This document shows positions 5,197-38,926 of a stretch of 39,508 nt of DNA, piece after piece. Each line of letters begins with the position of its first letter. Within the stretch, counting starts at the first letter, position 1. Position numbers and translations under genes: made by a program. The notes beneath the pieces are model-generated. The model had not been told where the DNA came from, ran no database searches, and saw only the letters and a list, made by a program, of their open reading frames with translations. Source of the stretch: a virus (lineage: Duplodnaviria > Caudoviricetes); IMG/VR virus record IMGVR_UViG_3300027373_000001, positions 1 to 39,508 of that record; one strand, given 5' to 3'.

Positions 5197-6471
5197 ATGT
5201 ATGTGGATACTTCCAACATCATTACTACGCTCGAGTGGGCTACCGGATACGGCGGTATTGGACTTGGCCTCAAAGAAGTCTATGGTCGACGAGTGCGGTG
5301 CATTGGATATAGTGATGTTGAGGGGTTTGTCCAAGCCAATCTTATCAGTAAAATGGAACAGGGACTCCTGGATGAGGCACCTGTTTGGCCGAATCTTAAA
5401 ACCTTCCCAAGCCGAAAGTTTCACGGATTGGTGGACGTCCTCATTGCGGGATACCCTTGCCAGCCCTTCTCCTACGCCGGAAAGCGCGGCGGCGAAGAAG
5501 ATCCCCGGCACCTCTGGCCTTTCATTCAAGGGGCAGTTAAGCTTATTCGGCCACGATGCTGCTTCTTTGAGAACGTCGCAGGACATCTTACCCTCGGGTT
5601 TAAAAACGTCGTGCACGACCTGGACGAGCTGGGTTACACAGTTGCAGCAGGACTGTTTACGGCGGCAGAAGTCGGAGCGCCGCACAACCGCAAGCGGCTC
5701 TTTATCCTGGCCCACGACAACAACATCCGACTGTCACACGGAAAATTTGCGCTCGACGCAACAGAAGCCGGGCTCGATGCACAGCGTGACTTTGCCGCAG
5801 GCGGTCAAAAAGAGCTGGCCGACGGCGAAAGCGCAGAACGCGCAGAACGCATGCGACCACGGTCAAGGCGGCCCGGACCTGCAGACGGAGGTAATGAAGT
5901 GGCCGACGCCGGCCGTGATGGACGTGACGGGCGGAGACTACCCGACGGAGATAAAGGACGGCGCGATCAGAAGCCTGCACAACGCCAAGGGCCGGGAGCA
6001 GTACTACGGCGCGAGGCTGCGGGACGCGGTGAAGCTGTTCTGGCCGACGGCCTCGACCAGGGACTGGAAGGACACGCCCGGGATGTCGATGGAACGGGAC
6101 GGTCAGGAACTCGGCAGGGTGGACCAGCTGGCGAGGGCTGTATATTTCCACCAGCGTGGCCGTCTCGCCCCGGCGAGTCGCAGTACGGATGGGAGCCGCC
6201 CCGAGTCGTGGGCGACGCCGCGGTCAGGCAAGACGACCGGGGAGTCGGCGGAGACGTGGGAGAAGCGAAAGAAGAAGGGCGACGTGTCGACGATGCCGCT
6301 GGGAGCGCAGGTCAACGCCTGGAAAACGCCCCGGGCCTGCGAGGGGGACAAGCCTCCGATGGTGGACAAGCACCATCAGGGGCTGACGGCGCAGGCGCGG
6401 CCGGAGGCAGGCGCGGCCGGAGGCAGGCGCGGCCGGAGGCAAGCTCAACCCCAGATGGGTCGAGACCCTGA
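5197..6471 (+). CDS. C5-cytosine DNA methyltransferase catalytic (alpha) frame, motifs I-VIII; frameshifted at 6391-6438 before motif X
   Basis: TGYGG (I), GYPCQPFS (IV), FFENV (VI), HNRKRLFI (VIII). Motif X (LRMCGNGVVP) lies downstream in another frame. Confidence 0.88.
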   Translation: MYVDTSNIITTLEWATGYGGIGLGLKEVYGRRVRCIGYSDVEGFVQANLISKMEQGLLDEAPVWPNLKTFPSRKFHGLVDVLIAGYPCQPFSYAGKRGGEEDPRHLWPFIQGAVKLIRPRCCFFENVAGHLTLGFKNVVHDLDELGYTVAAGLFTAAEVGAPHNRKRLFILAHDNNIRLSHGKFALDATEAGLDAQRDFAAGGQKELADGESAERAERMRPRSRRPGPADGGNEVADAGRDGRDGRRLPDGDKGRRDQKPAQRQGPGAVLRREAAGRGEAVLADGLDQGLEGHARDVDGTGRSGTRQGGPAGEGCIFPPAWPSRPGESQYGWEPPRVVGDAAVRQDDRGVGGDVGEAKEEGRRVDDAAGSAGQRLENAPGLRGGQASDGGQAPSGADGAGAAGGRRGRRQARPEASSTPDGSRP

Positions 6472-6661
6472 TGGGGCTGCCGATGGGCTGGACGTGCCCG
6501 GACTGCCCGCCCTCGGTGATAAGGAACTGGCCGAGCTTTATGATTGGATGGCTCGTACTACAAACCGAACTGACGAGCTGCGGATGTGCGGAAACGGAGT
6601 CGTGCCCGCCGCCGCCGCAGTCGCTTGGCGAACTCTTTACAGAGAACTGTGTGGAGAATGA
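5201..6661 (+). CDS. Overlapping +1-frame (beta) methyltransferase polypeptide with W-x-T-(P) repeats; as assembled it is fused to the alpha C-terminus (motif X)
   Basis: 486-codon open frame with six WxT(P) units. Its expected motif IX (KLNPRWVETLMGLPMGWT) is in the third frame from 6441. Confidence 0.78.
   Translation: MWILPTSLLRSSGLPDTAVLDLASKKSMVDECGALDIVMLRGLSKPILSVKWNRDSWMRHLFGRILKPSQAESFTDWWTSSLRDTLASPSPTPESAAAKKIPGTSGLSFKGQLSLFGHDAASLRTSQDILPSGLKTSCTTWTSWVTQLQQDCLRRQKSERRTTASGSLSWPTTTTSDCHTENLRSTQQKPGSMHSVTLPQAVKKSWPTAKAQNAQNACDHGQGGPDLQTEVMKWPTPAVMDVTGGDYPTEIKDGAIRSLHNAKGREQYYGARLRDAVKLFWPTASTRDWKDTPGMSMERDGQELGRVDQLARAVYFHQRGRLAPASRSTDGSRPESWATPRSGKTTGESAETWEKRKKKGDVSTMPLGAQVNAWKTPRACEGDKPPMVDKHHQGLTAQARPEAGAAGGRRGRRQAQPQMGRDPDGAADGLDVPGLPALGDKELAELYDWMARTTNRTDELRMCGNGVVPAAAAVAWRTLYRELCGE
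6391..6438 (+). repeat. 16-bp perfect tandem repeat x3 (GCAGGCGCGGCCGGAG) in the C5 MTase
   Basis: Copies at 6391-6406, 6407-6422 and 6423-6438. Confidence 0.95.
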
Positions 6662-6969
6662 TGATGAGTAAGAATATTGACTCTGATATCCGCCGCCGCA
6701 AGATGTTTATCAAGTCGGCGCACGATGTTATGGAGCATTGGCCCGGATACGCCGCCTCCCTATCCAGCCTCTCGATCGAATGCGAGACCGACCGCTACAA
6801 CAAGGAACGCCAGGGCGCGGCGCAGGATGTATTGATATCGACGTGGAAGGCAGTACGGACGAACCAGGCCACGCCGGAGCAGTTCGAGAAGGCGGTCATA
6901 GACTGGCGGGTTTGCCCCCGCCTCGCTTTTTATTGTTTCGAGATGAGGTTAAGGAGGATGAAGAAATGA
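6658..6969 (+). CDS. hypothetical protein
   Basis: ATGA overlap with the stop at 6661; GGAG upstream. Confidence 0.6.
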   Translation: MMMSKNIDSDIRRRKMFIKSAHDVMEHWPGYAASLSSLSIECETDRYNKERQGAAQDVLISTWKAVRTNQATPEQFEKAVIDWRVCPRLAFYCFEMRLRRMKK

Positions 6970-7322
6970 TACAGATGAGTATGTTCAACGACAGCGGCGC
7001 CGCTACGCCGGAGGCGCAGGTCTCCGGCACGGCCGCCGCCTGCAGCGAAGAGGCAAGAACGAAGGTGGACGCCAACAGGCTCCGGGTGCTCACCGAGGCG
7101 GAATACAAGCTGTTCCCCAACGGGGCCATAGCCGACGAGATAGTCTACCGCCTGCAGAGCATGGGCGTAGCGGTGGACGAGTTCTCGATCCGGCCGCGGG
7201 TGACGGAACTCAAGAGCGAGGAACACGGCGCCGTCCTGGTCGAGACCGGGGAACGCCGCCGCAACGCCAAGGGTAACAGCTGCGCGGTACTGATACACCG
7301 GCTGTTCACGGAGGCCGCATGA
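6966..7322 (+). CDS. putative winged-helix DNA-binding protein
   Basis: ADEI...SIRPRVTELK...LVETGERRRN pattern; AGGAGG RBS. Confidence 0.6.
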   Translation: MIQMSMFNDSGAATPEAQVSGTAAACSEEARTKVDANRLRVLTEAEYKLFPNGAIADEIVYRLQSMGVAVDEFSIRPRVTELKSEEHGAVLVETGERRRNAKGNSCAVLIHRLFTEAA

Positions 7323-8050
7323 CCAACCTTGAAAGACTGAAAGTGACCATCGGGGATTTTGAAGATAAAATGAAATATGGGGACAGGGAGGAACTTAGCC
7401 AAGTCCTAAACGACATCAACTCCGAAGTAGACAGGTTGATATCCGAAGAGCGTTCACAAAAAACAGAAGTACATGCGGCGTGTACGAAGCAGGGAAGTGA
7501 ACAGAAGCCCACGGCCCCGGCTGGTATGGGTAGTCTTGAGGCATGGGAGAGCGAGGCAGAAGCGTTCTACAAAGCTAGTGGCTATCTTCGCCCCGGTAAA
7601 GACCCCGGCATAATCGGTGATGAGGAATATATCCAAAGGCGGGATAGGGCGTGGTCTCTCTGGTGTGGTGGCTGGAATTATCGGGATAATCTCTCCCCCA
7701 TCTCCGAGGCCAAGGTGGGGAAACAAGAGGAGCCGCTGGCGGTAATAACCGCGCTTTGTAAGCGGGCCTACGAAACCTCAAAGTCAAAGGGATGGAAGCA
7801 CGACAATGACGGCCAGGCCATAGCCCTGATGCACAGCGAACTCTCCGAGGCTCTCGAGGCGATGAGGAAGCCGGACCACAAGGACGAGCATCTTCCGAAC
7901 CTTGACCCGGTCGGCCTTGAACTGGCTGACGTTCTAATCCGGGTGTTAGACTTCTGCGGAGCCCGTGAAATAGATCTTGCCACGTGCCTCAAGGCGAAGA
8001 TGGACTACAACGACAGCCGGCCGATGAAACACGGCGGTAAACTATTCTAA
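7319..8050 (+). CDS. MazG-like NTP pyrophosphohydrolase with unrelated N-terminal extension
   Basis: IALMHSELSEALEA...ELADVLIRVLD...KMDYNDSRP..HGGK. Confidence 0.82.
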   Translation: MTNLERLKVTIGDFEDKMKYGDREELSQVLNDINSEVDRLISEERSQKTEVHAACTKQGSEQKPTAPAGMGSLEAWESEAEAFYKASGYLRPGKDPGIIGDEEYIQRRDRAWSLWCGGWNYRDNLSPISEAKVGKQEEPLAVITALCKRAYETSKSKGWKHDNDGQAIALMHSELSEALEAMRKPDHKDEHLPNLDPVGLELADVLIRVLDFCGAREIDLATCLKAKMDYNDSRPMKHGGKLF

Positions 8051-8064
8051 AAGGAAATAAACTC

Positions 8065-8481
8065 ATGAAAAAATATACCCTACTACTGATATTCTTCTCC
8101 GCCGCCTGCGCCCCTGCCGGCATGCCGCTCGAAGAGCAGGTATCGGCCGTCAAAGCCTGCAAGCAGGCGGGCGGGACGCCGCAGGAGATCCGCTACGCCG
8201 ACGGGGAAGGATGCGCCAAAGTCAACTGCTACTTCGGAGAGGAGCCCGGCGCGAGGCGGGAGAAAGAGGCCAAGCCGTGCCTGGACAAAGGCGGCGTACC
8301 GATATACTCCTCGTGGGACGGCACCCTCAAGGACTGCCAGTTCCCGAAGGAGAAGATTACAGAGAAGTGGGCCTACGCCTTCGTCTGCAAGAATATTCCG
8401 CCGGCCGGCCAGGCCAACTGGATAGACTGGCTCAAGGTCAACGGCGAATGCACCCAGATAGCCAAGGAGGATTCCAAATGA
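8065..8481 (+). CDS. putative lipoprotein
   Basis: MKK + hydrophobic stretch + lipobox-like SAAC; Cys-rich mature part. Confidence 0.65.
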   Translation: MKKYTLLLIFFSAACAPAGMPLEEQVSAVKACKQAGGTPQEIRYADGEGCAKVNCYFGEEPGARREKEAKPCLDKGGVPIYSSWDGTLKDCQFPKEKITEKWAYAFVCKNIPPAGQANWIDWLKVNGECTQIAKEDSK

Positions 8482-8572
8482 AGAAGACCGCAAAATGCCG
8501 ACTGCACAACAAACTCTGCCGCCGCTTCCCCTGCCAACACGCCGGCAGCCGGACGTGCCAGAGGAGGAGATC

Positions 8573-8722
8573 ATGATGGCGCACCTCACCAAGCTGGCCG
8601 CCGCCATCGTGGCCGTCCCGATGTGGATAAAGGCCACGATCATCTTCCTGCTCATCGTCGCGCTGATGTTCTTCGAAGCCGCCCGGGCCGAAGAATACGA
8701 TGAATACGACCACGAGGACTGA
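8573..8722 (+). CDS. small membrane protein
   Basis: GGAGGAG RBS; hydrophobic helix with acidic tail. Confidence 0.55.
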   Translation: MMAHLTKLAAAIVAVPMWIKATIIFLLIVALMFFEAARAEEYDEYDHED

Positions 8723-8723
8723 A

Positions 8724-8852
8724 ATGAAACACATCGACAGGATACCCACGGACGTTCGCCCCACGGGGAGGAACTTGACGGCCTTGGCCTGGATTATGAT
8801 ATGGTTCCTCCTGTCCTTTATGACCGGAGTGCTCCTCTACATCGTATCATGA
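8724..8852 (+). CDS. small membrane protein (42 aa, below the track cutoff)
   Basis: MKHIDRIPTDVRPTGRNLTALAWIMIWFLLSFMTGVLLYIVS; GAGG upstream, ATGA-coupled to the next gene. Confidence 0.55.
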   Translation: MKHIDRIPTDVRPTGRNLTALAWIMIWFLLSFMTGVLLYIVS

Positions 8853-9136
8853 CGCCGCCGACCGAAGAACAGAAGGCGCGTGAGCGCGAACGCCTGGCCC
8901 TGCACAGGGCGGCCATGAAGCGCGTAGGCGCCGCTTTCCCGGCCCCCAAGGCCCAGAGCCGCCATGAGCACGACCAAAAGGCCGCCACGGCCCTGCAGGA
9001 GGCCGCCAACGACCGCCTGAACCGGGGCTGGCTGGCGGCCCGGCAGGACCTGATATCCATGGACGAGTTCAAGGCGATACTCCTCGGCTGGGAACGCGAC
9101 CAGGCGGAAGCCATCCGCATTTTGAAAAGGAAATGA
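8849..9136 (+). CDS. hypothetical protein
   Basis: ATGA coupling at both ends. Confidence 0.6.
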   Translation: MTPPTEEQKARERERLALHRAAMKRVGAAFPAPKAQSRHEHDQKAATALQEAANDRLNRGWLAARQDLISMDEFKAILLGWERDQAEAIRILKRK

Positions 9137-9957
9137 GCATGCAGAGGCAACACGACATCAAGAACGGCTACACCCAACTGGCGCACACGTTGCTCGAGGA
9201 CATGGCGCAGATGGACCTCACGAGCATGGAGTTCCGGGTGATCATGTGGGTTTGGCGCAACTCCTACGGCGTACACCACAAGAGCACCCGGCCGGTATCC
9301 GAGCGCGAGATGGCCCGCAGCATGGGCACCAACCCGGGCAACGTGCACCGGGCCCTGGAAAGCCTCAAGAAGCGCGACCTCGTGCGCCAGAAGGTACGCT
9401 CCTACAGCTTCAATAAGTACGCTGTAGGCGTTGCCGGGCGGCAACACCTGAATGTAATTAATCCATTAATTACAATGAAGCGTTGCCCAGCGGCAACGGG
9501 GGCGTTGCCGGGCGGCAACGGGGGGGCGTTGCCCAGCGGCAACGGGGCGTTGCCGGGCGGCAACGCTTCGAATGTAATATTGAAAGATAGGGGAGTTAAA
9601 GATAGGGGGAGTGAGCGCAGCGGAAAAACCGCTGCACCCCCAGCCCCGGTCCCTTCCGGGTCTTTTTCCCGAACCGAAATAGAGGCCGTCGGCCTGCACT
9701 ACATCAGCGTGAAGAAACTGCCGATGGCGGACGATGGGGCCAGGCAGGTGTACGCCAAGATGCGAAACGTCTGGGACCCCGCCAGGAAACTTCTGACGCT
9801 GGCGTCAGGAAACGTGGAGCGCGTCAAAGAGGCCATCAGCGACCTCGACGCCTACTACGCCGGCAAGCCGTGGACTTTATCGTGGGTGGCCACAGATTAC
9901 CCCGAGTGGGACAAGGAGAGGATGGAAAATGACGAAAAGAAAGAAGTTCGGAAGTAG
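9133..9957 (+). CDS. replication initiator (lambda O-like)
   Basis: N-terminus NGYTQLAHTLLE...LTSMEFRVIMWVWRNSYG plus HTH; central linker encoded by iterons. Confidence 0.85.
   Translation: MSMQRQHDIKNGYTQLAHTLLEDMAQMDLTSMEFRVIMWVWRNSYGVHHKSTRPVSEREMARSMGTNPGNVHRALESLKKRDLVRQKVRSYSFNKYAVGVAGRQHLNVINPLITMKRCPAATGALPGGNGGALPSGNGALPGGNASNVILKDRGVKDRGSERSGKTAAPPAPVPSGSFSRTEIEAVGLHYISVKKLPMADDGARQVYAKMRNVWDPARKLLTLASGNVERVKEAISDLDAYYAGKPWTLSWVATDYPEWDKERMENDEKKEVRK
9430..9612. promoter_or_regulatory. putative replication origin: five palindromic iterons plus an AT-rich palindrome
   Basis: GTTGCC-N4-GGCAAC at 9430, 9482, 9504, 9528 and 9549; TGTAATTAAT-CC-ATTAATTACA at 9453-9474. Confidence 0.8.
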
Positions 9958-10363
9958 AGCTAAACAGGACGGAGACGCCGAGGCCGGAAGCAACCCGTCG
10001 GTGTTCTCCGACGAGTTCCTGCGGTGCAAGAGGTGCTTCGCCAGCAAGGGCGTCTACGGAGAGCCGGACGTGCCTACCCTGATGGCACGCTCGGTAGTCC
10101 GCCTGAAGGTGCAGGACGGCCCCAACCTGGACGTGGGCGTAGTGGTGCGCTGCGGCAACGCCGACTGCAACTACATCCACGAGGCTCGGCCGTTCCGGGC
10201 GGCGGCCGATCACGGCATCACCAAGAGCATGATGCTCCTGGCCGCGGCGGGCTGCCGCGGAGAGCTGACGTTTACGGCCGAGGAGTTCAAGAAGTACAAT
10301 ATGCCCTACAACCCGAATCAGCACATCGAGCCGATGCGCCAGCAGGAGGAGTTGCCGCTATGA
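9929..10363 (+). CDS. hypothetical Cys-rich (possible Zn-binding) protein downstream of the initiator
   Basis: CKRC and CGNADC; AAGGAG RBS. Confidence 0.6.
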   Translation: MTKRKKFGSRAKQDGDAEAGSNPSVFSDEFLRCKRCFASKGVYGEPDVPTLMARSVVRLKVQDGPNLDVGVVVRCGNADCNYIHEARPFRAAADHGITKSMMLLAAAGCRGELTFTAEEFKKYNMPYNPNQHIEPMRQQEELPL

Positions 10364-10653
10364 AGATCTTCATCCCCTGTAAGAAATGCCTGCGGGCCAC
10401 CGAGCACACGCACATCGTGCGGCAGATATACATCTGCACCGTGTGCGGCACCCAGAACTCCGGCCACGGCAAGCGGGTGGAGAAGCCGGCCGGCAAGCGC
10501 GGCCGAAAGCCCGCCCTGACCTCGGAGGACAGGCAGGAGGCGTATCGGCTGCACGTGATTGGACTCACCGACAAGGCCATCGCCAACCGCCTGCAGGTCT
10601 GCATAGCGACCGCCAGGAAGGCGTGGAAAGAGATGGAGGCCGCCCATGGATAG
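10360..10653 (+). CDS. Zn-ribbon + HTH protein
   Basis: CKKC...CTVC, then GLTDKAIANRLQVCIATARK HTH. Confidence 0.7.
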   Translation: MKIFIPCKKCLRATEHTHIVRQIYICTVCGTQNSGHGKRVEKPAGKRGRKPALTSEDRQEAYRLHVIGLTDKAIANRLQVCIATARKAWKEMEAAHG

Positions 10654-10885
10654 ACTGCAAAAGCTTCACCAGTTCTGCGTCAAGGCGGACCCCTACCCCA
10701 CCAACGCCGAGATACGGCGCGAGATGGAACGGCTTCTCGACGAGACGCCGGAGGCCAAAGAGTTCACGCTGTTCCCCTTCGCCTTCAAGGCGCAGGAGGA
10801 CTTCCGCATCGCCGTCCAGCAGCTCTGGGACACCGGCTTTCAAGCCATCGTCTCCGTCAGGAAGGGGGAACGCCATGGCGGGTAA
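10646..10885 (+). CDS. hypothetical protein
   Basis: GGAGG RBS; overlapping gene chain. Confidence 0.55.
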   Translation: MDRLQKLHQFCVKADPYPTNAEIRREMERLLDETPEAKEFTLFPFAFKAQEDFRIAVQQLWDTGFQAIVSVRKGERHGG

Positions 10886-11030
10886 AAGGAAACTCTGCAA
10901 CGACGCGCCCATCAACATCCTGCGGCGGCTACGCTATCGGGTGCGAAGGGAGTCCAAGCACTACCCGCAGATTTCGGCGGCAACTGTTGTCGCCTGGATA
11001 GACCAAGAGATCGAGAGGAGAAAAAAATGA
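10875..11030 (+). CDS. hypothetical small basic protein
   Basis: MAGKRKL...; overlapping gene chain. Confidence 0.5.
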   Translation: MAGKRKLCNDAPINILRRLRYRVRRESKHYPQISAATVVAWIDQEIERRKK

Positions 11031-11239
11031 AAGAGCCAGCCAAGAAGATCATCACCAACCCGATAGAGAATGGAAACCTTCTCTGCCCCGTCTGCAGGAA
11101 AGGCGCCGTCTACCAGGGAGACGACGGAAAGATGTACACGTCGCCCATGCGGCGCTTCACCATCCCCGGCAAGGTCAACGCCCTGATGCACGAGTGCTGC
11201 ATCTCGAAGATACTCTCCGAAGCGAGGCTCCGCAAATGA
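11027..11239 (+). CDS. hypothetical protein (CPVC...HECC)
   Basis: GAGGAG RBS, ATGA coupling. Confidence 0.55.
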   Translation: MKEPAKKIITNPIENGNLLCPVCRKGAVYQGDDGKMYTSPMRRFTIPGKVNALMHECCISKILSEARLRK

Positions 11240-12405
11240 ACAACCTCATCTGGAAAACCGAACGCCGCAAAGTGGCCGACCTCGTACCCTACGAGCACAA
11301 CCCCCGGAAGATAACGGCCGACCAGGCCCGCCGCCTGCAGGACAGCCTCGAGAAGTTCAACCTCGTGGAGATACCCGCCGTCAACACGGACGGGATCATC
11401 ATAGCCGGGCACCAGCGCCTGGCCGTCATGAAGGCCATCGGCCGCGGCAACGAGATGGTGGACGTCCGGGTGCCCAACCGGAAACTCACCGAGGCCGAGC
11501 TCAAGGAGTACAACCTGCGCTCCAACAAAAACGTGGCCGAGTGGGACTTCGATATCCTGGCCGAGCACTTCCCCGAGGATATGCTCAAGGACGTAGGCTT
11601 CGACATGGCCGACATGCCGGAGGTGCAGACGGGATCCCAACCCGGACAGGATAAGGTGCCTACCCTCCGCAAGACCAGCATCAAGGTAGGCGACGCCTTT
11701 ACGCTCGGGGAGCACGTGCTCCTATGCGGCGACAGCACCAGCCTCGACACCGTCCGAAAGCTCGGACCCTGCGAGATGGCGTTCACGGACCCGCCTTGGA
11801 ACGTGGCTATCGGCCTCGACAGCAATCCGCGCCACCGCCAGCGCAAGGGGCTCATCAACGACAACCTCGGCAAGGACTTCCCGGCTTTCCTGCACAAGGT
11901 CGCCGCCGCCCTCGCCGCGGCCGTCCGCAAGGACATCTACGTGGTGATGGGCTGCGCCGAGTGGCCGAACGTACACGCCGCCCTCGCCGCGGCCGGCTTC
12001 CATTGGTCCAGCACCATCGTCTGGGTCAAGGATATCTTCGTCCTCGGCCGGAGCAACTACCACCGCCGCTATGAGCCCATCTGGTACGGCTGGCAGAAGA
12101 ACAGCTCCTACCGCGGCGACCGCAAGCAGGACGACGTCTGGGAGCACCAGCGGCCGACCAGGAGCCCGGAGCACCCGACCATGAAGCCGGTCGAGCTGGT
12201 AGAGCATGCCATCCTCAACTCGTCCGTCAAAGGCGACACCGTGCTCGACCTGTTCGGAGGTTCCGGCACCACGCTCCTAGCCTGCGAAAAGACCGGCCGC
12301 AAGTGCCGCATGATCGAGCTCGAGCCCGGATACTGCCAAGTGATAATCGACCGCTGGGAGGAGTTCACCGGCCGCAAGGCCAAGCCCCTGCGCCTTGACA
12401 AGTAG
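11236..12405 (+). CDS. ParB-like N-terminal domain fused to an N4/N6 DNA methyltransferase
   Basis: PYEHNPRK...IIAGHQRL (ParB-N); CGDS, FTDPPWN, HPTMKPVEL, VLDLFGGSGTT. Confidence 0.92.
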   Translation: MNNLIWKTERRKVADLVPYEHNPRKITADQARRLQDSLEKFNLVEIPAVNTDGIIIAGHQRLAVMKAIGRGNEMVDVRVPNRKLTEAELKEYNLRSNKNVAEWDFDILAEHFPEDMLKDVGFDMADMPEVQTGSQPGQDKVPTLRKTSIKVGDAFTLGEHVLLCGDSTSLDTVRKLGPCEMAFTDPPWNVAIGLDSNPRHRQRKGLINDNLGKDFPAFLHKVAAALAAAVRKDIYVVMGCAEWPNVHAALAAAGFHWSSTIVWVKDIFVLGRSNYHRRYEPIWYGWQKNSSYRGDRKQDDVWEHQRPTRSPEHPTMKPVELVEHAILNSSVKGDTVLDLFGGSGTTLLACEKTGRKCRMIELEPGYCQVIIDRWEEFTGRKAKPLRLDK

Positions 12406-12423
12406 CCGGGGCCGCCATATAAT
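12395..12423 (+). promoter_or_regulatory. perfect sigma70 consensus promoter upstream of terS
   Basis: TTGACA (12395-12400), 17-nt spacer, TATAAT (12418-12423). Confidence 0.85.
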
Positions 12424-12429
12424 ATCTGC

Positions 12430-14228: not shown

Positions 14229-14237
14229 CCCCGGGCC

Positions 14238-14267
14238 TTGACAGCAATTGTTCCCGTCTGGTATACT
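14238..14267 (+). promoter_or_regulatory. sigma70-type promoter
   Basis: TTGACA, 18-nt spacer with extended TG, TATACT. Confidence 0.7.
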
Positions 14268-14300
14268 TTGGCCGTGAAGTTAAACTTGTTCGGAGGCAAA

Positions 14301-15077: not shown

Positions 15078-15087
15078 GGAGAAACAC

Positions 15088-15234
15088 ATGAAACTCGAAG
15101 AAGCCCTGCTGGAAGTGCTCAAGGACAGCCCGCCTAACGCCGCCATCCGCAAGCTCGACCTGGAAAAGGCCGTCGCCATGATGTCCGCGAAGCCGGAAGT
15201 GAAGCAGCCCGAGCCCGAACAGCCCGCCGCTTAA
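15088..15234 (+). CDS. small hypothetical protein (48 aa)
   Basis: AAGGAG RBS; MKLEEALLEVLK...; stop abuts the portal ATG. Confidence 0.55.
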   Translation: MKLEEALLEVLKDSPPNAAIRKLDLEKAVAMMSAKPEVKQPEPEQPAA

Positions 15235-28311: not shown

Positions 28312-28314
28312 ATT

Positions 28315-32051: not shown

Positions 32052-33373
32052 TGAGGAAACTTATGATGAATAAAATAATCGGCGCAGTTCTGATGGCGGT
32101 ATTTTTTTCTTGCCCGTTGTCCGCGGCGGACACGTACACAACGGGCGATATGGTTCTGATTAAACCCGGCAAATCTTCCCTGAATTGGGACGGGAAGATA
32201 AACGGAGACCTAGATATAATATCTTCCAGCGCCGCGACAAAATCTTCAACCCAGACGTTTACAGGCCAGAACACGTTCTCCAACAAGGTCGGCATCCTCG
32301 GCCCTGTGGCGGCCACCTACGGCCTGGCGATAAGCACCACCGCAAGTATCTCCGGCAAACTGACCACCACGGTCGCCTCCGATATTCTCGACTGGACCTA
32401 TATCGGATACACCAGCACGTTCTTCGGTTCCCACAACGGGGCCATCTCCGGAGACGACGGTTTCGGCTTCTACGACAAATCGAACACGTGGAACGGCCGG
32501 CTGGACCTTGGCCTGATATACGGCCCGCAGCTTCACGGCAAAGGGGCCATAGGCGCTCCGCTGCTGGGCCTGAACACCAGCACCCCGAAGGTCGCTCTGG
32601 ACGTCCTGGGCGGCATCGTGGCCAGCTCTTCCATTACGGCCAACGGCAACTTCTACGGCAACGGCGCGACCCTCTCCGGGGTCATCCAGTCCACGGCCAC
32701 GGGCAACTATCTGCTCCGTGTAGCCACAGCCACGTACCTTGCCACGGCTCCCGGCACCTGTTCCGCGGGACAGTACATCACCGGCTTGGCCGCAGACGGA
32801 ACAAAGACTTGCGAAACTCCGGCAGGCGCGGGCGATATGCTTTTAGGCACAGCGCAGACCGTAACCGCGGCTAAGACATTCAATACTTCTGCCCCAATTA
32901 CAGCCAGCAGCGCTACAGTATCAAGCATTACAGTAAATAATTTTTTAACAGGGCCGGGGATATTTAAAACAGCTTCTTCTGGGACTCTATTTGGCGGTGG
33001 GACACTTGCCGACACCGGAGTAGGAACCTATGCCGCAGCTTGTTTTCAAGGGTCAACGGTTACATTTACAACCAATGGAAATCCCACCCTTGTAGTCTCA
33101 AACTTTCAGGCCATGTGCTCTGCAACCGCAGACGCTGGTAGTTTGAGGTTACTTATAGATTCGGGAGCGGCAACGTATGTGCTGGGGACTTTCACCCAAG
33201 TTACAAATTCTTATCAGTCCTATTTAAACACCTTCGGGTTCATGTCCTTGTCTGCCGGGACACATACATTCTGCGTTCAATCAGCCAACGGAGGCGCTGG
33301 AACTACGACGTATTATTCTTCGGGCGGATATGGAAGCAAGCAGATGGGCTATACGCTGGTGAATTTCCCATGA
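32051..33373 (+). CDS. tail fibre / receptor-binding-like protein with signal-peptide-like N-terminus
   Basis: LIKPG...WDGKINGDLDII anchor, QTFTGQNTF, GLNTSTPKVALDV, FYGNGATLSG, AQTVTAAKTF. Confidence 0.75.
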   Translation: MRKLMMNKIIGAVLMAVFFSCPLSAADTYTTGDMVLIKPGKSSLNWDGKINGDLDIISSSAATKSSTQTFTGQNTFSNKVGILGPVAATYGLAISTTASISGKLTTTVASDILDWTYIGYTSTFFGSHNGAISGDDGFGFYDKSNTWNGRLDLGLIYGPQLHGKGAIGAPLLGLNTSTPKVALDVLGGIVASSSITANGNFYGNGATLSGVIQSTATGNYLLRVATATYLATAPGTCSAGQYITGLAADGTKTCETPAGAGDMLLGTAQTVTAAKTFNTSAPITASSATVSSITVNNFLTGPGIFKTASSGTLFGGGTLADTGVGTYAAACFQGSTVTFTTNGNPTLVVSNFQAMCSATADAGSLRLLIDSGAATYVLGTFTQVTNSYQSYLNTFGFMSLSAGTHTFCVQSANGGAGTTTYYSSGGYGSKQMGYTLVNFP

Positions 33374-33879
33374 TTACTTTGCTTCTTCCCTTGGCCGCCC
33401 TCGCCGAACTGATAAAGCGCCCCATCTTCTGGGCGCTCTATCCGCTGGCCTACGCGCTCCGCAAAAGGATACGCGAACGGCTCACCTTCTGGCCGTACCG
33501 CTTCCTGTGGCTTGCGCTCGACTCAACGATATGGCGCGAGAACATGCTCGTCTACAACAAGGACGTCGAGTTCTGCTGGTACGGCAAGCGCAGCGCCTTC
33601 GTCGAGAAGTATCTGCCCTACGACTTCGCCCGCTCGTTCTACTGGGGCGCGTGGCGCAACAACGGCATCAACTTCATGACCCTGACCGAGGGCTGGGTGG
33701 GCGCGAAGATCTCTGCGGTCCGCAAGTGGGAGAGCGGTAAGTCCTTCTACGAGGTCCGCACGTTCGCGCATGGCGCTGCGCTGCCCTATCTCGAGTTCTG
33801 GCCGAAGCCCGGCTTCCGCGTACAGTGCGGATGGATAACGTGCGGCCGCTTCCAGCTGCAGGCGAGGACCTACCCGTGA
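33370..33879 (+). CDS. hypothetical Trp-rich protein
   Basis: YWGAWRNNG motif; ATGA coupling. Confidence 0.65.
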   Translation: MITLLLPLAALAELIKRPIFWALYPLAYALRKRIRERLTFWPYRFLWLALDSTIWRENMLVYNKDVEFCWYGKRSAFVEKYLPYDFARSFYWGAWRNNGINFMTLTEGWVGAKISAVRKWESGKSFYEVRTFAHGAALPYLEFWPKPGFRVQCGWITCGRFQLQARTYP

Positions 33880-34082
33880 AACGCCTCGCCTACCTCTGGG
33901 AGAAATACGGCCCGCCAAAGCTCATAGAGATATTCGACGGCCGCGAGGACTTGGATAAGAAGCCGGAGATACCCAGCGACAAGCGCACAGGCGTGATACG
34001 CAAATTCAAAGAGCTCACCGACAGAGGGCACGACAGACGCAAGGAACTGCTCGCAAAGCTTAAGCGGAAAAGGAAATCATGA
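33876..34082 (+). CDS. hypothetical protein
   Basis: GTGA coupling; GAGG upstream. Confidence 0.5.
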   Translation: MKRLAYLWEKYGPPKLIEIFDGREDLDKKPEIPSDKRTGVIRKFKELTDRGHDRRKELLAKLKRKRKS

Positions 34083-34486
34083 CCACCGAGGAGAAGATAG
34101 ACCGGATACACGACGCGGTTATAAAAATTCAGTCAGATATGACCGCCGGAAAGATTGTCTGCGATACAATCCATAAAGGCGTAGACGAACGCATTGTTGG
34201 CCTACACCGTGCGGTTAAGGGCAACGGACAGCCCGGCCTTGAACAGAAGCACGAGGCGCTGGAGAAAGAGCACGTCGCGCTTACTACCCGCTTCGACAGG
34301 TTTGAGACAAAGGTAATAACCTGGGCGAGTATCGCTATTGTAGTCGGGCAGATTCTCGCGCCGATAGTGGGCGACAAGATCTCGAAAGCATGGCGGGCAG
34401 AAGGTAAGGAGATATCCGCCGCGGCCACGGACCTTAACAGGGCCGCGCCGATTAAGATTTTAGAGGACGACTTATATGCTCGCTAA
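34079..34486 (+). CDS. coiled-coil + single-TM lysis-region protein
   Basis: KGNGQPGL motif, coiled coil, TM VITWASIAIVVGQILAPIV. Confidence 0.65.
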   Translation: MTTEEKIDRIHDAVIKIQSDMTAGKIVCDTIHKGVDERIVGLHRAVKGNGQPGLEQKHEALEKEHVALTTRFDRFETKVITWASIAIVVGQILAPIVGDKISKAWRAEGKEISAAATDLNRAAPIKILEDDLYAR

Positions 34487-34730
34487 ATTCTTGCGCCGCT
34501 GGTTCGGCTCCGTCCGGCTCTCCATGACCCTGCTGGCCGTGCTTGCCGGGCTTGTGGTAGTGGCTTTGGACCTGCGCGGCGCCCTGCGCCTTACCGCGCA
34601 GCTCTACGGCTTCCTCAGCGCCATGCTCGGGGCCGTGGCCGTGTTCGTGTGGAAGGATACCGACAGACCCAGCGGCTACAGCCCCCAGGGCGGCTTCCGC
34701 TACCACGATGACCAGGAGGGAAAACCATGA
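34476..34730 (+). CDS. putative holin (2 TM)
   Basis: Two hydrophobic helices directly upstream of the endolysin. Confidence 0.55.
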   Translation: MLAKFLRRWFGSVRLSMTLLAVLAGLVVVALDLRGALRLTAQLYGFLSAMLGAVAVFVWKDTDRPSGYSPQGGFRYHDDQEGKP

Positions 34731-35236
34731 GCCGCGTGACCGTCAACGAGACGTACCTGACCTTTAAAAGCGCGCTGAAGCCCCGCCAGCGCACCCAGCG
34801 CTTTACCCTGCATTGGCCGGGCCGCCTGCCGGCCGGCTTCGACCTGGATAACCTGGACGCCGCCGCCATCCACAGCTGGCACCTGGACCGTGGCTGGGCC
34901 GGCATCGGCTATCACTACATCATCCGGCCGGACGGCGCCATCGAACGCGGCCGCCCGCGCTGGGCGCTCGGGGCTCACGATGAGGGCGAGAACGCGGACA
35001 GCCTGGGGATATGCGTCCTGTACCAGGAAAGCCCCACAGAGGCCAGCCTTGAGAGCCTGGCGGTCCTTCTGGCTGACCTTGCCGAGATCTACGGCCAGCT
35101 GCCGGACGAGCTGGGCGTGGTGGACGGCCACCGCGACAACGAGCCCCCCGAGACCGCCACGGAATGCCCGGGGGACGTGCTCTACGCTATGCTGCCGGAA
35201 ATCCGCCGGCGCGCGCGGGCGGCGCTGGGGTACTGA
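34727..35236 (+). CDS. endolysin, N-acetylmuramoyl-L-alanine amidase (Amidase_2, T7 lysozyme-like)
   Basis: IHSWH..RGWAGIGYHYII..DG.IE.GRP, GAH..G.N..SLGIC, GHRD, TECPG. Confidence 0.93.
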   Translation: MSRVTVNETYLTFKSALKPRQRTQRFTLHWPGRLPAGFDLDNLDAAAIHSWHLDRGWAGIGYHYIIRPDGAIERGRPRWALGAHDEGENADSLGICVLYQESPTEASLESLAVLLADLAEIYGQLPDELGVVDGHRDNEPPETATECPGDVLYAMLPEIRRRARAALGY

Positions 35237-35237
35237 T

Positions 35238-35414
35238 ATGGGCCACGACCCCGCCCAGGGCGGCCGCCGGCCCGTGATGGTCATCACCAAGAGCTTCGAC
35301 ATCCTGGCGTGGCCCATCATCGGCCCCTGGCTATGCCGTCTTCTGGGCGGCGGCATCGGGCCTCGCAAAGATTCGCAGAAAGCGAAAGCACAAGGAGGAA
35401 AGTATGGAAATTAA
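35238..35414 (+). CDS. small hypothetical protein
   Basis: Fills the gap between the endolysin and the next gene. Confidence 0.4.
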   Translation: MGHDPAQGGRRPVMVITKSFDILAWPIIGPWLCRLLGGGIGPRKDSQKAKAQGGKYGN

Positions 35415-35775
35415 GGAACTGGCGGCAAAGGTGCTGGCGGATATCAAGGACTCGGCAGATATCCTGGACGGCGTGAAGGCGGTCAAGGAGGCGTGGGCCA
35501 GCGAGAGCAACGTTCTCAAGAAAGCGTTCAAGGCGGTCTCTGCCGCGGTGAGCGTGATCACGGAAGTGGTGCAGCGCGTGGAGACGATAGGCGCAGACCT
35601 GAAACTGGCCGGCGACAAGAAGAAAGAGCTGGCCGTGGAGGTGATCAACGCCCTGGTCGACATCCCGTGGGTGCCCGAGGCCCTCGAGGCGCAGCTCATC
35701 GAGTTCGCCATCGACGCCATCGTGGGTGCGTTCAACAAGAAGTTCGGAAAGGACTGGCTGTCTAAAATAGCCTGA
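35404..35775 (+). CDS. hypothetical lysis-region helical protein
   Basis: AAGGAGG RBS; GDKKKELAV...VDIPWVPE motif. Confidence 0.7.
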   Translation: MEIKELAAKVLADIKDSADILDGVKAVKEAWASESNVLKKAFKAVSAAVSVITEVVQRVETIGADLKLAGDKKKELAVEVINALVDIPWVPEALEAQLIEFAIDAIVGAFNKKFGKDWLSKIA

Positions 35776-35936
35776 TGGTTACACCCAAGGCCCGCCCCGT
35801 CGTCCACCGCCACCGCCCGGGGCGGGCCGCCACTTTATCAGATCTACTGAACGGCCTGCTGGCAAGCTGGCAGGCCGTAAAACCCCACATAGAAAGCCGC
35901 CTCCTGCAGTCGGCCCCCCGCCGTAAAAAATAGGAC

Positions 35937-35965
35937 TTGACTGTTTCCGCATCCAATGCTAAGAT
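35937..35965 (+). promoter_or_regulatory. sigma70-type early promoter
   Basis: TTGACT, 17-nt spacer ending TGC, TAAGAT. Confidence 0.75.
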
Positions 35966-35970
35966 ATGGG

Positions 35971-36069
35971 TGTCGAGGATTAGAGCGCGGATTTTTCACA
36001 TATAGGTTTGAGCCCCCGGTGTCCGCGCCTCCCCTCGACAAGGAAGCAAGACCGGGGGCTCCTATTTTT
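35971..36069 (+). ncRNA. structured 5' leader / attenuator-like RNA 1
   Basis: Stem 36010-36020/36051-36061 plus T-run; its loop is complementary to the transcript 5' end. Confidence 0.55.
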
Positions 36070-36082
36070 AGGAGGATACAGT

Positions 36083-36247
36083 ATGAAGAACGAGACCATA
36101 TACGACCGCGCAGAGAGAACCGATCGCTGGGCAAAGGAACGCGAACTTTTAAAGGCCGAGTACAACGCCGCTAAAGAACGCGAGGATTGGACCGCTTGCT
36201 CCCGCGCCGTAGATAAGATGCGGACGCTCGGTGGATGCCCTCGGTGA
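36083..36247 (+). CDS. hypothetical early protein
   Basis: AGGAGG RBS. Confidence 0.65.
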   Translation: MKNETIYDRAERTDRWAKERELLKAEYNAAKEREDWTACSRAVDKMRTLGGCPR

Positions 36248-36260
36248 TAAGGAGAACATT

Positions 36261-36479
36261 ATGGAAATCAAACATCCTGAACGTTTCCCCAAAGAAGGCT
36301 TAAAGCCGGAGGGAATCATCCTCCATCGGGCCAGCACTATCCGGTGGCTTCTGGACTGCATGCGGACGGCGGACACGCCTCAACATGCCACCAGCTATCA
36401 CCGCCGTGCCGTCTACATCGCCAAGTTCACGCAGTACCAGCTCGGCTTCTGCACCCTTGCCGAGGCGGAAAGGAGATAG
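36261..36479 (+). CDS. hypothetical early protein
   Basis: AAGGAG RBS. Confidence 0.6.
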   Translation: MEIKHPERFPKEGLKPEGIILHRASTIRWLLDCMRTADTPQHATSYHRRAVYIAKFTQYQLGFCTLAEAERR

Positions 36480-36480
36480 A

Positions 36481-36952
36481 ATGAAACTGAATAAAGGACT
36501 GTTCACAAGCGACCGAGGAGATTGGGCCACCCCGCCCAATTTCTTCGATAAACTGGATGCGGAGTTTCACTTCACGCTCGACGTATGTGCTTCGCCGAAC
36601 AATAACAAATGCAAGCGGTTTCTGACAAAGGAGCAGAACGGACTGATACAGGACTGGGCTAGAATAGCGGCACAGGGCGGCACAGGGCGGCACAGGGCGG
36701 CACAGGGCGGAACGTGGTGCCTGCTTTATGAATCCACCCTATGGGTCCGAAATCCCCGCTTGGGTAAAGAAGGCAAGCGAAAGCGGATGCCTGGTAGTCG
36801 GGCTTCTTCCGGCCAGAACAGACACACGCTGGTTTCACAACTATGTCTACGGCAAAGCGGAGATTCGATTCGTAAAAGGACGCATTCGTTTTGTCGGGGC
36901 TAAATCAGGGGCCCCTTTCCCTTCTATGATTGCTATTTGGAGGAACATATGA
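36481..36952 (+). pseudogene. phage Dam-type N6-adenine methyltransferase, frameshifted at a 10-bp tandem repeat (candidate phase-variable, OFF as assembled)
   Basis: N-half DWATPP.FF..LD.EF.FTLDVCAS...NGL.QDW in frame 36481. C-half CFMNPPYG...LLPARTDTRWFH...GRIRF...APFPSM in the +1 frame to 36952. Confidence 0.88.
36671..36710 (+). repeat. 10-bp perfect tandem repeat x4 (CACAGGGCGG)
   Basis: Read directly from the sequence. Confidence 0.95.
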
Positions 36953-37245
36953 AAACAAAAAAACAAGAGCACACTGCGAGTCCGTGGCGGTTTATAAAAA
37001 CGTATCCGACAGAAAAGTCCAGCTATACGGTTCAATCGGGGGACTCCCCTGTTGAAACGATAGCGCGGGTGTTGTGGCATGGAAACCAGGCCGAAGCCAA
37101 CGCCGCCCTAATCGCCGCCAGCCCCGAAATGTTGTCCGTCCTGCAGGAGCTGGTCGCCCTCATCGGCGACTCCGACGGGTCCACGCTCGACGAGGCGTAT
37201 GATAAGGCGGTGGCCGTTATCGCCAAGGCCAAGGGGGAAGCATGA
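36949..37245 (+). CDS. hypothetical phage protein (HTPGPW...ANARLIAAAP-type family)
   Basis: HTASPW...ANAALIAASPEML...IAKAKGE. Confidence 0.7.
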   Translation: MKTKKQEHTASPWRFIKTYPTEKSSYTVQSGDSPVETIARVLWHGNQAEANAALIAASPEMLSVLQELVALIGDSDGSTLDEAYDKAVAVIAKAKGEA

Positions 37246-37685
37246 AGACGTGCATGACCTGCCTGTACAGCTTCACCCACGAGAAGTGCGACGGCTGCCT
37301 GCATACGCCCGAGGACTATGAGACGTATCGGACGATAGGCAGGATGGCCCCGTTCCGGTATCTGTACCACGTCGAAAGTGATCCTCTGGCGATAATGTGC
37401 CGCCTCCACGCACTGCAGCTTCTCGGCCATCGGCCTATCACGCTCGGGCCCGGGGAGGCAGATATCTACGCCACGTCCACGCCGGAGGCCACCAGCAAGC
37501 ACCTTCACTACGTGGCCAAGCAATGCGGCTATTGTTGCCACATGCTCCGCATGGACGCCTTTGGCGACGTAACCCTGCGGCTCTGCAAGGACGGCGGGCC
37601 GTTCACTATGCGCTGGCGCGACAACCAACTTATCTCGGTCGAAACTCCGGCCGGGACCTATTGGAAGAGGATGGGGGTATTATGA
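37242..37685 (+). CDS. hypothetical Cys-rich protein
   Basis: CMTC, CDGC, CGYC; ATGA coupling. Confidence 0.6.
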   Translation: MKTCMTCLYSFTHEKCDGCLHTPEDYETYRTIGRMAPFRYLYHVESDPLAIMCRLHALQLLGHRPITLGPGEADIYATSTPEATSKHLHYVAKQCGYCCHMLRMDAFGDVTLRLCKDGGPFTMRWRDNQLISVETPAGTYWKRMGVL

Positions 37686-38059
37686 AAAAAGACCCGATAA
37701 ATAAGTGGACCAAGGCCATGAATGTCGAGCACAAAGACAAACTCGACCTCAAGTTCAAGCATTCCCCGGCGCCTTGGCGGGAGGACGACCCTGGGCACAT
37801 CGTAGACAACAAGGGCGGAGACGTTATCACCGACGAGAACCACGGCTCGATGATAGCATTCAACTGCGGCGAAGAGGGAATGGGCGACAGAGCCTTATGT
37901 CTGAACGCTCCGGAGATGTACTACACGCTCCAAGAAGCCTACGTCTACCTCAACAAGAGCCCCCATTCTTCCACGGCCGATATCCTCGCGCAACAGATAA
38001 ACCGGCTGCTCCGCAAGATATCGACGAAGCGGGGGATAAAGGAGTATTACGACCTATGA
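37682..38059 (+). CDS. hypothetical phage protein (second HTPGPW-type)
   Basis: HSPAPW...DRALCLNAPEMY. Confidence 0.65.
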   Translation: MKKDPINKWTKAMNVEHKDKLDLKFKHSPAPWREDDPGHIVDNKGGDVITDENHGSMIAFNCGEEGMGDRALCLNAPEMYYTLQEAYVYLNKSPHSSTADILAQQINRLLRKISTKRGIKEYYDL

Positions 38060-38208
38060 TAACCGTAAGAAAATCCAAATACGAACCTCGCACCAAGATA
38101 GCCATAGGCTTCGGGAAAACGGTGCGCCACATAAACTACAAAGAGGCGAAATACATCCATGTTCGTCTCGGGAGGATGTTATGCAATCGCATGGCCACAA
38201 GCCGGTAA
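38056..38208 (+). CDS. small basic hypothetical protein
   Basis: AAGGAG RBS; ATGA coupling. Confidence 0.5.
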   Translation: MITVRKSKYEPRTKIAIGFGKTVRHINYKEAKYIHVRLGRMLCNRMATSR

Positions 38209-38651
38209 CCCGCCGATGTGTCTACTGCCGCCCCCGCTGGACGTGGGGGGTACGCCGCTGGTCCCTGCTCGGCCGCATCTATGCCTTCCTGTGGCCGCAC
38301 CACGTCATAGGTATAGACTACGGCCCGCCCTACACCGACGGGATGTGCGACGAGGCTGTGCGCCGGATGGAGGATCACGACCAGGGTCGGGCACCCCGGG
38401 AGATAGAGCCAGTCGACATCCTGATAGCGATCTTCGTGGCCGCCGTGCTGGCGCAGTATGCCTACATCTGCAGGCAGGAAGAACGCCTGCAGCACCTCCG
38501 GCAGATAGCGGTCAGCATTCCCTTGGATGCTCGTGCGCAGAATGGAAGGAAGCCTTGCGTAGACTGCGAGGTGTGCTTCCGAAAAAACGACACAGAAAAC
38601 CCGGACTGCGCTCATTGCCTCGGGTGCTGGATGTGGGGTGTCAATCCATGA
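38181..38651 (+). CDS. hypothetical protein with TM helix and Cys motifs
   Basis: GGAGG RBS; CVYC, TM segment, CVDC/CAHC. Confidence 0.5.
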   Translation: MQSHGHKPVTRRCVYCRPRWTWGVRRWSLLGRIYAFLWPHHVIGIDYGPPYTDGMCDEAVRRMEDHDQGRAPREIEPVDILIAIFVAAVLAQYAYICRQEERLQHLRQIAVSIPLDARAQNGRKPCVDCEVCFRKNDTENPDCAHCLGCWMWGVNP

Positions 38652-38926
38652 ACTGGAACTTCAAGCGCCGCCCGGCCGCAGACAAAGACAAGCGCCTCTA
38701 CCGGATACTGAATATCCTCGCACGGCTGCAGGGTGTCCGGGTGTCCGGGTGTCCGGGTGTCCGGGTGTCCGGGTGTCCGGGTGTCCGGGTGTCCGCCCTG
38801 GCCGACGATTTCAACGTCTCACAGCGGCAGGTACAGCGTGATCTGAATGCCTTGAGCACGGCTGGCTTCCCGCTTGAATGCGTGTGGGAAGGACGGGAGA
38901 TGGTTTGGAAGATGATAAAGACTTGA
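38648..38926 (+). CDS. HTH_11-type winged-helix transcription regulator containing an 8-bp repeat tract
   Basis: RLYRILNILARLQ...VSALADDFNVSQRQVQRDLNALSTAGFPL. Confidence 0.8.
   Translation: MNWNFKRRPAADKDKRLYRILNILARLQGVRVSGCPGVRVSGCPGVRVSALADDFNVSQRQVQRDLNALSTAGFPLECVWEGREMVWKMIKT
38731..38794 (+). repeat. 8-bp perfect tandem repeat x8 (GGGTGTCC)
   Basis: Read directly; 64 bp. Confidence 0.95.

Follow-up and report, generated by a model that had tools for sequence, protein, structure and literature searches.

The window analysed here is a 39,508-nt stretch of DNA from an uncultured phage, in which 80 ORFs were scanned. It carries a cytosine and an adenine methyltransferase gene, each interrupted at a tandem repeat, a further methyltransferase, and a gene for a small helix-turn-helix (HTH) protein with a repeat of its own:

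5197..6661, + strand: C5 cytosine methyltransferase alpha chain, the catalytic frame (PF00145, E 4e-27)
5201..6671, + strand: overlapping beta chain with WPTP repeats and a motif-IX-like LNPRWVETLMG (phrog_1008, E 5e-19)
6391..6441, + strand: tract 1, 16-bp unit x3.19; 3 units are OFF in both frames, 2 or 5 are in frame
11194..12405, + strand: third methyltransferase (ParB-like plus N6/N4 domain), intact (PF01555, E 1e-23; phrog_498)
35937..35965, + strand: sigma-70-like promoter upstream of the gene run with Dam and HTH (consensus 9/12; conserved in the homologous locus L082)
36481..36952, + strand: phage Dam-family (PF05869) adenine methyltransferase, split before its NPPY motif (PF05869 on both halves)
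36667..36710, + strand: tract 2, 10-bp unit x4.4; 4 units are OFF, 0, 3 or 6 are in frame
38648..38926, + strand: stand-alone winged HTH protein, 92 aa (PF08279, E 1e-5, above the cut-off; aligned to the N-terminal HTH of larger regulators)
38731..38795, + strand: tract 3, 8-bp unit x8.12, in frame; 2, 5, 8 or 11 units keep the frame
38923..38951, + strand: sigma-70-like promoter directly behind the HTH gene (consensus 10/12; conserved in L082)

An array scan bore out the original prediction that these three tracts are the sole perfect non-triplet arrays within genes of the window; the coordinates first given for them covered whole units only, and the fuller spans are those listed above. No further perfect array of the class scanned (unit of 4-30 bp, at least 3 copies, at least 24 bp) was present in the window, and 200 triplet shuffles of it yielded none. 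A comparison set of 163 other viral loci (2,234,396 bases, redundant) contained 7 non-triplet arrays of this class, 25-39 bp long, and none of at least 40 bp in these 2.2 Mb of other phage DNA. At the rate of that set, three arrays would occur by chance in 39.5 kb with P ~3e-4. All three tracts lie within the four methylase and HTH genes, which make up 8.7% of the genome (a gene set chosen post hoc), and the scan found no array in the third methyltransferase. Frame analysis likewise agreed with the earlier claim that both methylases are broken at their arrays and mended by one unit less, and that the HTH gene is in frame. Further gene decay was looked for in both methylases and nothing besides the tract frameshift was found, neither gene carrying other stops or frameshifts.

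The C5 gene had been described as a methyltransferase frameshifted at its array, which held; its two-frame architecture had been overlooked. The alpha and beta frames are both open in 4/4 homologous loci (L085-L088). In the window, the alpha chain runs out of frame from the tract and stops at 6471, leaving its motif-X end (GNGVVP) in the +1 frame that ends at 6661; the C-terminal 67 aa of alpha are 69% identical to the intact homologue P0113. The beta chain reads through into the C-terminus of alpha (ORF 5201-6661); its native end is displaced to the following frame, which stops at 6671. The assignment of these elements as motifs IX and X is putative and follows from their position. Relatives of the beta chain at E<=0.001 number 3,722, an LNP-x-W type motif was found by regular expression in 129/150 of the beta-frame proteins listed, and intact forms are present in P0135, P0285 and P0286, the last of which had no sequence match in Pfam or PDB. 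Ten beta-frame proteins with motif X only were set aside as a mixed set that cannot be attributed to repeats from the protein alone. Judged by its reading frames, the C5 gene encodes a two-frame enzyme of the M.EcoHK31I kind, in which one slip is predicted to break both chains.

The N-terminal frame of the Dam gene ends in the window at a stop at 36903. The intact 153-aa form P0010, a 3-unit allele, has a full-length PF05869 match (E 2e-30 over 10-151) and contains NPPY, and the predicted Dam structure (pLDDT 83.5) has N6-adenine methyltransferases as its fold matches. Compared with the tract-less homologue P0012, the ON allele has 10 extra residues, which correspond to three whole units, so that its history likely passed through OFF states. 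The same site holds a G-run in other phages: among 54 distinct genes (79 loci), the run was G7 and in frame in 15, G8 or G6 and out of frame in 4, and absent in 35, all in frame. Most of this series derives from a single cluster of near relatives, a stop codon interrupts one of the G8 genes as well, and errors in homopolymer length could produce the same picture. NPPY was missing in 9/104 Dam homologues, namely the form in the window and 8 others in which divergence sets in at W/L-GG; a regular-expression class with NPPY and no tail (16 proteins) was not counted, several of its members being intact. A pattern scan for two copies of the 10-mer returned 3 loci, all unrelated to Dam. These data point to the PF05869 region just before NPPY as a family-wide hot spot, filled by a G-run in some phages and by the 10-mer here.

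Comparing related contigs for unit-number polymorphism, as originally proposed, revealed ON and OFF alleles of both methylases, with unit numbers in other assemblies inferred from their proteins and not from contig DNA. The Dam protein P0010, from a 39,224-bp ENA contig, is letter-identical to that of the window but has 3 units and is in frame; P0011 (ENA, 4 substitutions) also has 3 units, and two JGI forms, P0009 on a 1,096-bp contig and P0133 on a 1,231-bp contig, have 4 units and are frameshifted. For C5, P0286 from the 39,224-bp ENA contig shows 0 differences in the 216 aa before the tract and has 2 units, P0135 (JGI, 39,422 bp, 10 differences) and P0285 (ENA) have 2 units in frame, and P0284 (JGI, 2,387 bp) has 3. 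In-frame alleles thus occur, beyond the 39,224-bp contig, in three diverged sister strains, and the frameshift in the window and three small JGI contigs, each tract showing two lengths only (3 vs 4 units in Dam, 2 vs 3 in C5). A further locus, L089, has the exact sequence of the window across 10,861 bases and is hence not independent. As deduced from these proteins, the frame at both methylase tracts is set by a unit number that differs between otherwise near-identical genomes.

The depth of k-mers bears on the Dam tract. In run X1, which is possibly the window's source and so not independent, the loop-only unitig had a depth of 19, the shared unitig 36.8 and the flanks 13.9-17.3, corresponding to ~1.07 loop passes and ~4.5 units (a mean that allows for a minority allele). 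Loop-only 31-mers occurred at full depth, which is impossible with a 34-bp Dam tract. The long Dam allele in the window is therefore real and no assembly error, an outcome that had been named as one that would undo the prediction, and the depth points to the 4-unit allele as the majority. Runs X2-X4 had small shares (0.05-0.17), and therefore we claim no habitat or strain from them; no piece of X2 covers the Dam gene, an absence that carries no information.

Taken together, the 16-bp and 10-bp tracts are probably slippage-driven contingency loci that toggle cytosine and adenine methylation by the phage. Units would be gained and lost by slipped-strand mispairing or by annealase-assisted misalignment, for which the Sak4-like protein, SSB and exonucleases encoded by the phage are candidates. 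An extra C5 unit would remove motif X from alpha and motif IX from beta together, leaving no active enzyme, and an extra Dam unit would remove NPPY. Progeny in the ON state would be shielded from restriction enzymes, and OFF progeny would escape modification-dependent nucleases; the population represented by the window would be OFF/OFF, with the third methylase constantly on. Several palindromes resembling restriction sites are under-represented in the window (GATC 0.48, CTAG 0.15, ACCGGT 0 vs 7.3 expected). Switching rates may be low, since the ON tracts have 2-3 units and the rate quoted in PMC7383803 for a 3-unit tetranucleotide tract is 0.5-2e-6. Among the 80 ORFs there was no restriction gene and no integrase, and Rfam matches and tRNAs were both 0. 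A GTDB scan yielded a single capsid match (75%), located on a 1,961-bp contig from an Elusimicrobia bin, which we rejected as too weak for assigning a host.

The HTH gene is the last before the promoter-like site at 38923..38951, which lies upstream of recombination and replication genes including the C5 methylase and may be a target of the HTH protein. Its predicted structure (pLDDT 76.9) has winged-HTH fold matches (best E 2.6e-3), HTH families alone match the sequence, and the protein ends at 92 aa with no WYL domain behind the HTH. In the model, tract 3 encodes a low-confidence loop between helices 1 and 2. The region matched 0 GenBank phages; the viral scans for close kin returned G001 and the short G002 only, a scan from P0135 returned no locus, and a further locus, L090, starts inside the tract and gives no unit count. 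Against G001, the tract shows 0 differences in 65 bp, as compared with 49/204 in flanking codons (P ~9e-4, synonymous sites).

That this tract acts as a third switch, as originally proposed, is possible, though we stop short of calling it probable: the tract itself is there, but 6/6 HTH proteins found, from three lineages with 75-80% protein identity, have the 8-unit length, and the 4-unit form appears in one contig of collapse length. This is the continuous X2 contig, 32 bp shorter than the window and out of frame (33 bp, 4 units, the collapse length at k=31); X1 is ambiguous here, with a cycle depth of 40 and a hole at 38646-38757. The tract appears to turn over, yet it is kept at 8 units in most lineages, and 4/6 proteins carry interrupting substitutions. 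A plausible alternative for this tract only, which we would not make the leading expectation, is a fixed-length DNA element, an operator- or iteron-like array or a quadruplex, kept pure by turnover. The constant 8 units fit such an element, given that 2, 5 and 11 are likewise in frame, as do the match of the tract to the G3N1-7 quadruplex motif and the conserved promoter that begins ~130 bp beyond its end; moreover, the four distinct arrays of the comparison set sit, as we read their translations, in apparent replication-initiator linkers. It sits less easily with the shorter X2 contig, as the same pipeline broke at the HTH loop in X1 without collapse, and with the differing positions of variant units among the ENA proteins, while the protein search that returned the 8-unit forms favours in-frame alleles and covered calls up to 161 aa.

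For the methylases, the alleles could instead be one-off knockouts, with 2- and 3-unit alleles as the stable norm and a lineage that lost two dispensable methylases by chance duplications and without evolved hedging. Both genes are accessory, as G001 has neither and carries an unrelated 524-aa gene near the C5 position; the third methylase is intact, the ON tracts are short and each has two lengths only, all of which such losses would accommodate. We nevertheless consider them unlikely, because two independent genes are broken alike, each at its sole perfect tract and with no other decay, because arrays are rare and all three fall within that 8.7% of the genome (again, a set chosen post hoc), and because the same Dam site holds a variable G-run in other phages.

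Less probable still is an assembly effect, with the short alleles arising by collapse of the alleles in the window or of longer ones. The short alleles measure 35, 34 and 33 bp, exactly the lengths expected if a de Bruijn assembly with k of 27-33 collapsed the tracts, so X2 and the identical ENA contig are possibly collapsed, and the 39,224-bp contig, otherwise identical in both proteins, possibly derives from the same reads. Yet there is no reason for collapse to restore both frames, the in-frame unit numbers recur in three diverged strains of two different sources, the conserved downstream motifs demand an in-frame ancestor, and at k>=39 neither methylase tract collapses. Even if the effect were real, the alleles of the window would be true gains relative to a functional ancestor. 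The converse, that the long alleles are assembly or library errors in intact genes, is very improbable: the identical phage was assembled in frame elsewhere and the depth support covers Dam and not the C5 tract, but three other JGI contigs have long alleles too, and the loop-only 31-mers have already largely refuted this reading for Dam.

While the tracts themselves stand, their grouping into one phase-variation system is doubtful, because G001 has the HTH tract without both methylases and the third methylase has no tract. A bolder extension of methylation switching, which we regard as speculative and unlikely, is an evolved three-bit switchboard in which repeats with long units would set adenine methylation, cytosine methylation and a transcription regulator independently of one another, giving at most 8 heritable progeny types; off-register C5 alleles would then yield chains with exchanged motifs, IX on alpha and X on beta, that may complement each other in co-infected cells.

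The novelty first assumed for these loci is reduced by phage contingency loci already in print, namely T2 agt and T4 rIIA A-runs (Gomez, Barrick, Waters 2025, PMC12633550) and, as cited there, the G-run of the bpm adenine methylase of BPP-1. With T2 agt the window shares a frameshift in a phage DNA-modification gene that would hedge between restriction systems of opposed target, and reversibility is likely at the methylase tracts as well; the published tracts are runs of a single base, 6-9 long, for which rates were measured, whereas the window has 8-16-bp units in methyltransferase genes. The words 'tandem' and 'methyltransferase' have 0 occurrences in the main text of that paper. The bpm product resembles the methylases here in being an orphan methylase encoded by a phage, and its gene has a tract that varies in length (G8 in BPP-1 and vB_BbrP_003, G9 in BIP-1, G10 in BMP-1), but it is one gene with a mononucleotide run, annotated as a group-beta N6 methylase and neither PF05869 nor C5.

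Bacterial phase-variable methyltransferases of the type III mod and type I hsdM/hsdS kinds (PMC7383803, PMC13076061) also have intragenic non-triplet repeats, which turn the methylases ON and OFF, and follow a survey rule of at least 3 units that the window's alleles share. The bacterial genes belong to chromosomal R-M systems of the host; their units span 1-9 bp in the survey and, for phasevarions, a regulon is involved. The window's methylases are orphan PF00145 and PF05869 phage genes with longer units and no restriction partner, and neither belongs to the type I or type III R-M loci of a host that underlie phasevarions. In M.EcoHK31I (PMC2836561), the alpha gene, which has motifs I-VIII and X, also encodes, in a different frame, a beta chain that carries motif IX. 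The C5 gene here similarly has a second open frame inside alpha, conserved in homologues, but it spans about the whole gene, has WPTP repeats and is crossed together with alpha by a tandem repeat, the two chains being predicted from sequence.

In the largely open-access literature covered, we found no phage methylase whose switching depends on repeat units of more than a few bases and no single repeat gating both frames of a dual-coded enzyme. What is new is the 8-16-bp units, the several tracts in one phage and the probable switching of a dual-coded gene. The phage contingency loci described so far consist of short homopolymers, whose variation is hard to separate from sequencing error; because 10- and 16-bp units are not explicable as homopolymer miscalls, this phage offers a clean test case for natural methylome switching, and it suggests that where a viral assembly contains a split methylase gene, the gene may often be in an OFF state and not a pseudogene.

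The window carries three perfect tandem arrays of non-triplet units, all recovered where the original prediction had placed them:

6391-6441, + strand: tract 1, 16 bp x3.19, perfect, in the C5 methylase gene
36667-36710, + strand: tract 2, 10 bp x4.4, perfect, in the Dam methylase gene
38731-38795, + strand: tract 3, 8 bp x8.12, perfect, in the HTH gene

No further perfect array of this class occurs in the window. A redundant set of 163 further viral loci (2.23 Mb) has 7 non-triplet arrays (4 distinct), all shorter than 40 bp. The Dam and HTH tracts (36675-36707, 38731-38789) also fit the G3N1-7 quadruplex motif, as two of its five window matches, with exactly four G-runs in the 4-unit Dam allele.

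Loss of one unit had been predicted to repair both methylases, and in-frame proteins of this kind exist: comparison with related contigs revealed 2 vs 3 units in C5 and 3 vs 4 in Dam. PF05869 matches both halves of the window's Dam gene, the break falling before NPPY. Among 104 homologous proteins, collected with the truncated protein as a query that favours short matches, P0010 (ENA, 39,224-bp contig) joins both window halves in frame with 3 units, as does P0011 with 4 substitutions; the 3-unit protein (model pLDDT 83.5) matches N6-adenine methyltransferase folds. The 4-unit frameshift recurs in P0009 (JGI, 1,096 bp) and P0133 (JGI, 1,231 bp). P0012, a 73% identical homologue, lacks the tract and is 10 residues shorter at that point, so that the in-frame (ON) allele holds three added non-triplet units; growth unit by unit would traverse frameshifted (OFF) states. 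NPPY is missing in 9/104 proteins, 8 of which, besides the window's form, diverge at W/L-GG, a count to which homopolymer errors can likewise add.

The same site, just before NPPY, bears G-runs in other phages. In 54 distinct Dam genes taken from 79 viral loci, most of them belonging to a single cluster of relatives (L147-L222), G7 is in frame in 15, and out-of-frame genes have G8 (3, one with an additional stop codon) or G6 (1), variation to which homopolymer errors can contribute; the 35 genes without a G-run are all in frame. This position is a hot spot of the Dam family. A second PF05869 G-run break point lies about 15 residues past NPPY (L226, phage nd12, ~554-562; P0016, P0022, P0064).

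The C5 methylase gene is dual-coded, with the catalytic part (PF00145) in frame 5197 and a WPTP-repeat chain (phrog_1008) in frame 5201, and both frames (alpha and beta) are open in 4/4 homologous loci. Tract 1 immediately precedes LNPRWVETLMG in the first of these reading frames and, in the second, the linker that leads to GNGVVP; by their position, we label the two putative motifs IX and X. In the 3-unit allele, alpha lacks motif X because it terminates at 6471, whereas beta reads into alpha's end, losing motif IX. This chimera occurs in P0134 (JGI, 39,508 bp) and P0284 (JGI, 2,387 bp), and two units with the proper end in P0135 (JGI, 39,422 bp), P0285 (ENA, 5,755 bp) and P0286 (ENA, 39,224 bp); over the 216 residues before the tract, P0286 differs from the window at 0 and P0135 at 10. 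P0113, a close alpha homologue without the tract, is intact. A beta-frame query against 1.84 billion representatives gave 3,722 matches; among the 150 listed, the window gene forms the two best clusters, and 13 relatives (P0177, P0179, P0191 and others) hold motif-IX-like and motif-X segments in one frame. The beta-frame family thus has more than one arrangement for dividing its motifs. At the position of the C5 methylase and its neighbours, the relative G001 has a 524-aa gene, ParB-like by eye (L002 2478-4052).

Assembly collapse could produce short alleles: at k 27-33 the predicted lengths of 35, 34 and 33 bp match the short alleles of all three tracts to the base, and the identical ENA contig and the X2 contig (X2 and X1 being sequencing runs, seen as contigs with depths) may have arisen in this way. 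Collapse is, however, an unlikely cause of all five in-frame methylase proteins, which are spread over two sources and at least four contigs. In X1, possibly the run from which the window derives, the Dam loop-only piece has depth 19, the shared piece 36.8 and the flanks 13.9-17.3, or ~1.07 loop passes per molecule, and the frameshifted 4-unit allele is therefore the majority there; the HTH tract is ambiguous by the same check. Just two lengths are seen per methylase tract in the assemblies, and since the ON tracts are short, switching rates may be low (available text of PMC7383803).

Family match, predicted structure and fold match identify the HTH protein as a 92-aa winged HTH. Tract 3 encodes a loop of low model confidence that exceeds its counterpart in 11 homologues lacking the tract by 13 residues, and any shift out of frame would cost the protein its recognition helix. 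G001 (~77% identical here) has the same pure 65-bp tract, with 0 differences against 49/204 in flanking codons, which implies that the tract turns over or is constrained at the DNA level. The 8-unit length recurs in four ENA proteins, with interrupting substitutions at varying positions, and length is conserved in 6/6 proteins; the suspect exception is one X2 contig whose tract is 32 bp shorter (a collapse length) and out of frame. That this tract is a switch is a tentative reading, slightly on the doubtful side.

The leader behind the first promoter (35972-36075) can adopt two mutually exclusive folds, one of which forms a terminator-like hairpin followed by a T-run, and may be an attenuator. 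It had no match in an Rfam search, is nearly identical in the locus L082 (z -1.9 in the window, -0.8 in L082) and includes a single near match to the unit of the HTH tract. Behind the second promoter, a hairpin and T-run (window 38987-39045, z -3.3; L082 5465-5515, z -2.8) keep their stem despite differing sequence.

As a virus record the window is complete and has terminal repeats; its ends cut through a DUF4116 gene of 66-bp repeats (39247-39508 joined to 1-197). The viral locus L090 has 2.77 copies across this junction, which would make the circle ~39,343 bp long. All identifiable genes lie on the + strand, running from recombination and replication through terminase, head, tail and lysis to a run of small genes. 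Domain and family profile scans of 80 ORFs found no integrase or restriction gene. L223, a short contig from an Elusimicrobia bin, encodes a relative of the capsid protein (75%) and offers only a weak hint at the host.

Frame is set by unit number, and both states are present among assemblies of this phage and its sisters; the methylase tracts are thus probably switches. Unit number would be altered by slippage or annealase-assisted misalignment, OFF alleles would yield no active enzyme, and selection may shift between hosts cutting unmethylated DNA and hosts cutting methylated DNA, alternating selection of the kind measured for T2 agt (available text of PMC12633550). Palindromes are depleted in the window, which fits long restriction pressure and says nothing on type IV enzymes. 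As for a single three-tract system, the tracts are real, but they are not one fixed module, because G001 lacks both tract-bearing methylases and the window's third methylase (11194..12405, +) has no tract.

Within the literature available to us, a search turned up neither a phage methylase under the control of 10-16-bp units nor several such tracts in one phage, nor switching by way of a dual-coded gene. The phage contingency loci described in 2025 are homopolymers in the available text of PMC12633550, in contrast to the 10-16-bp methylase units here; methylase G-runs read from records are G8 in BPP-1, G9 in BIP-1 and G10 in BMP-1. In M.EcoHK31I, a beta chain carrying motif IX is nested inside the alpha gene (available text of PMC2836561), and the window's C5 gene likewise has a second open frame inside alpha. 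The tracts would work like bacterial methylase phase variation, but the window methylases, being orphans, are not phasevarion members.
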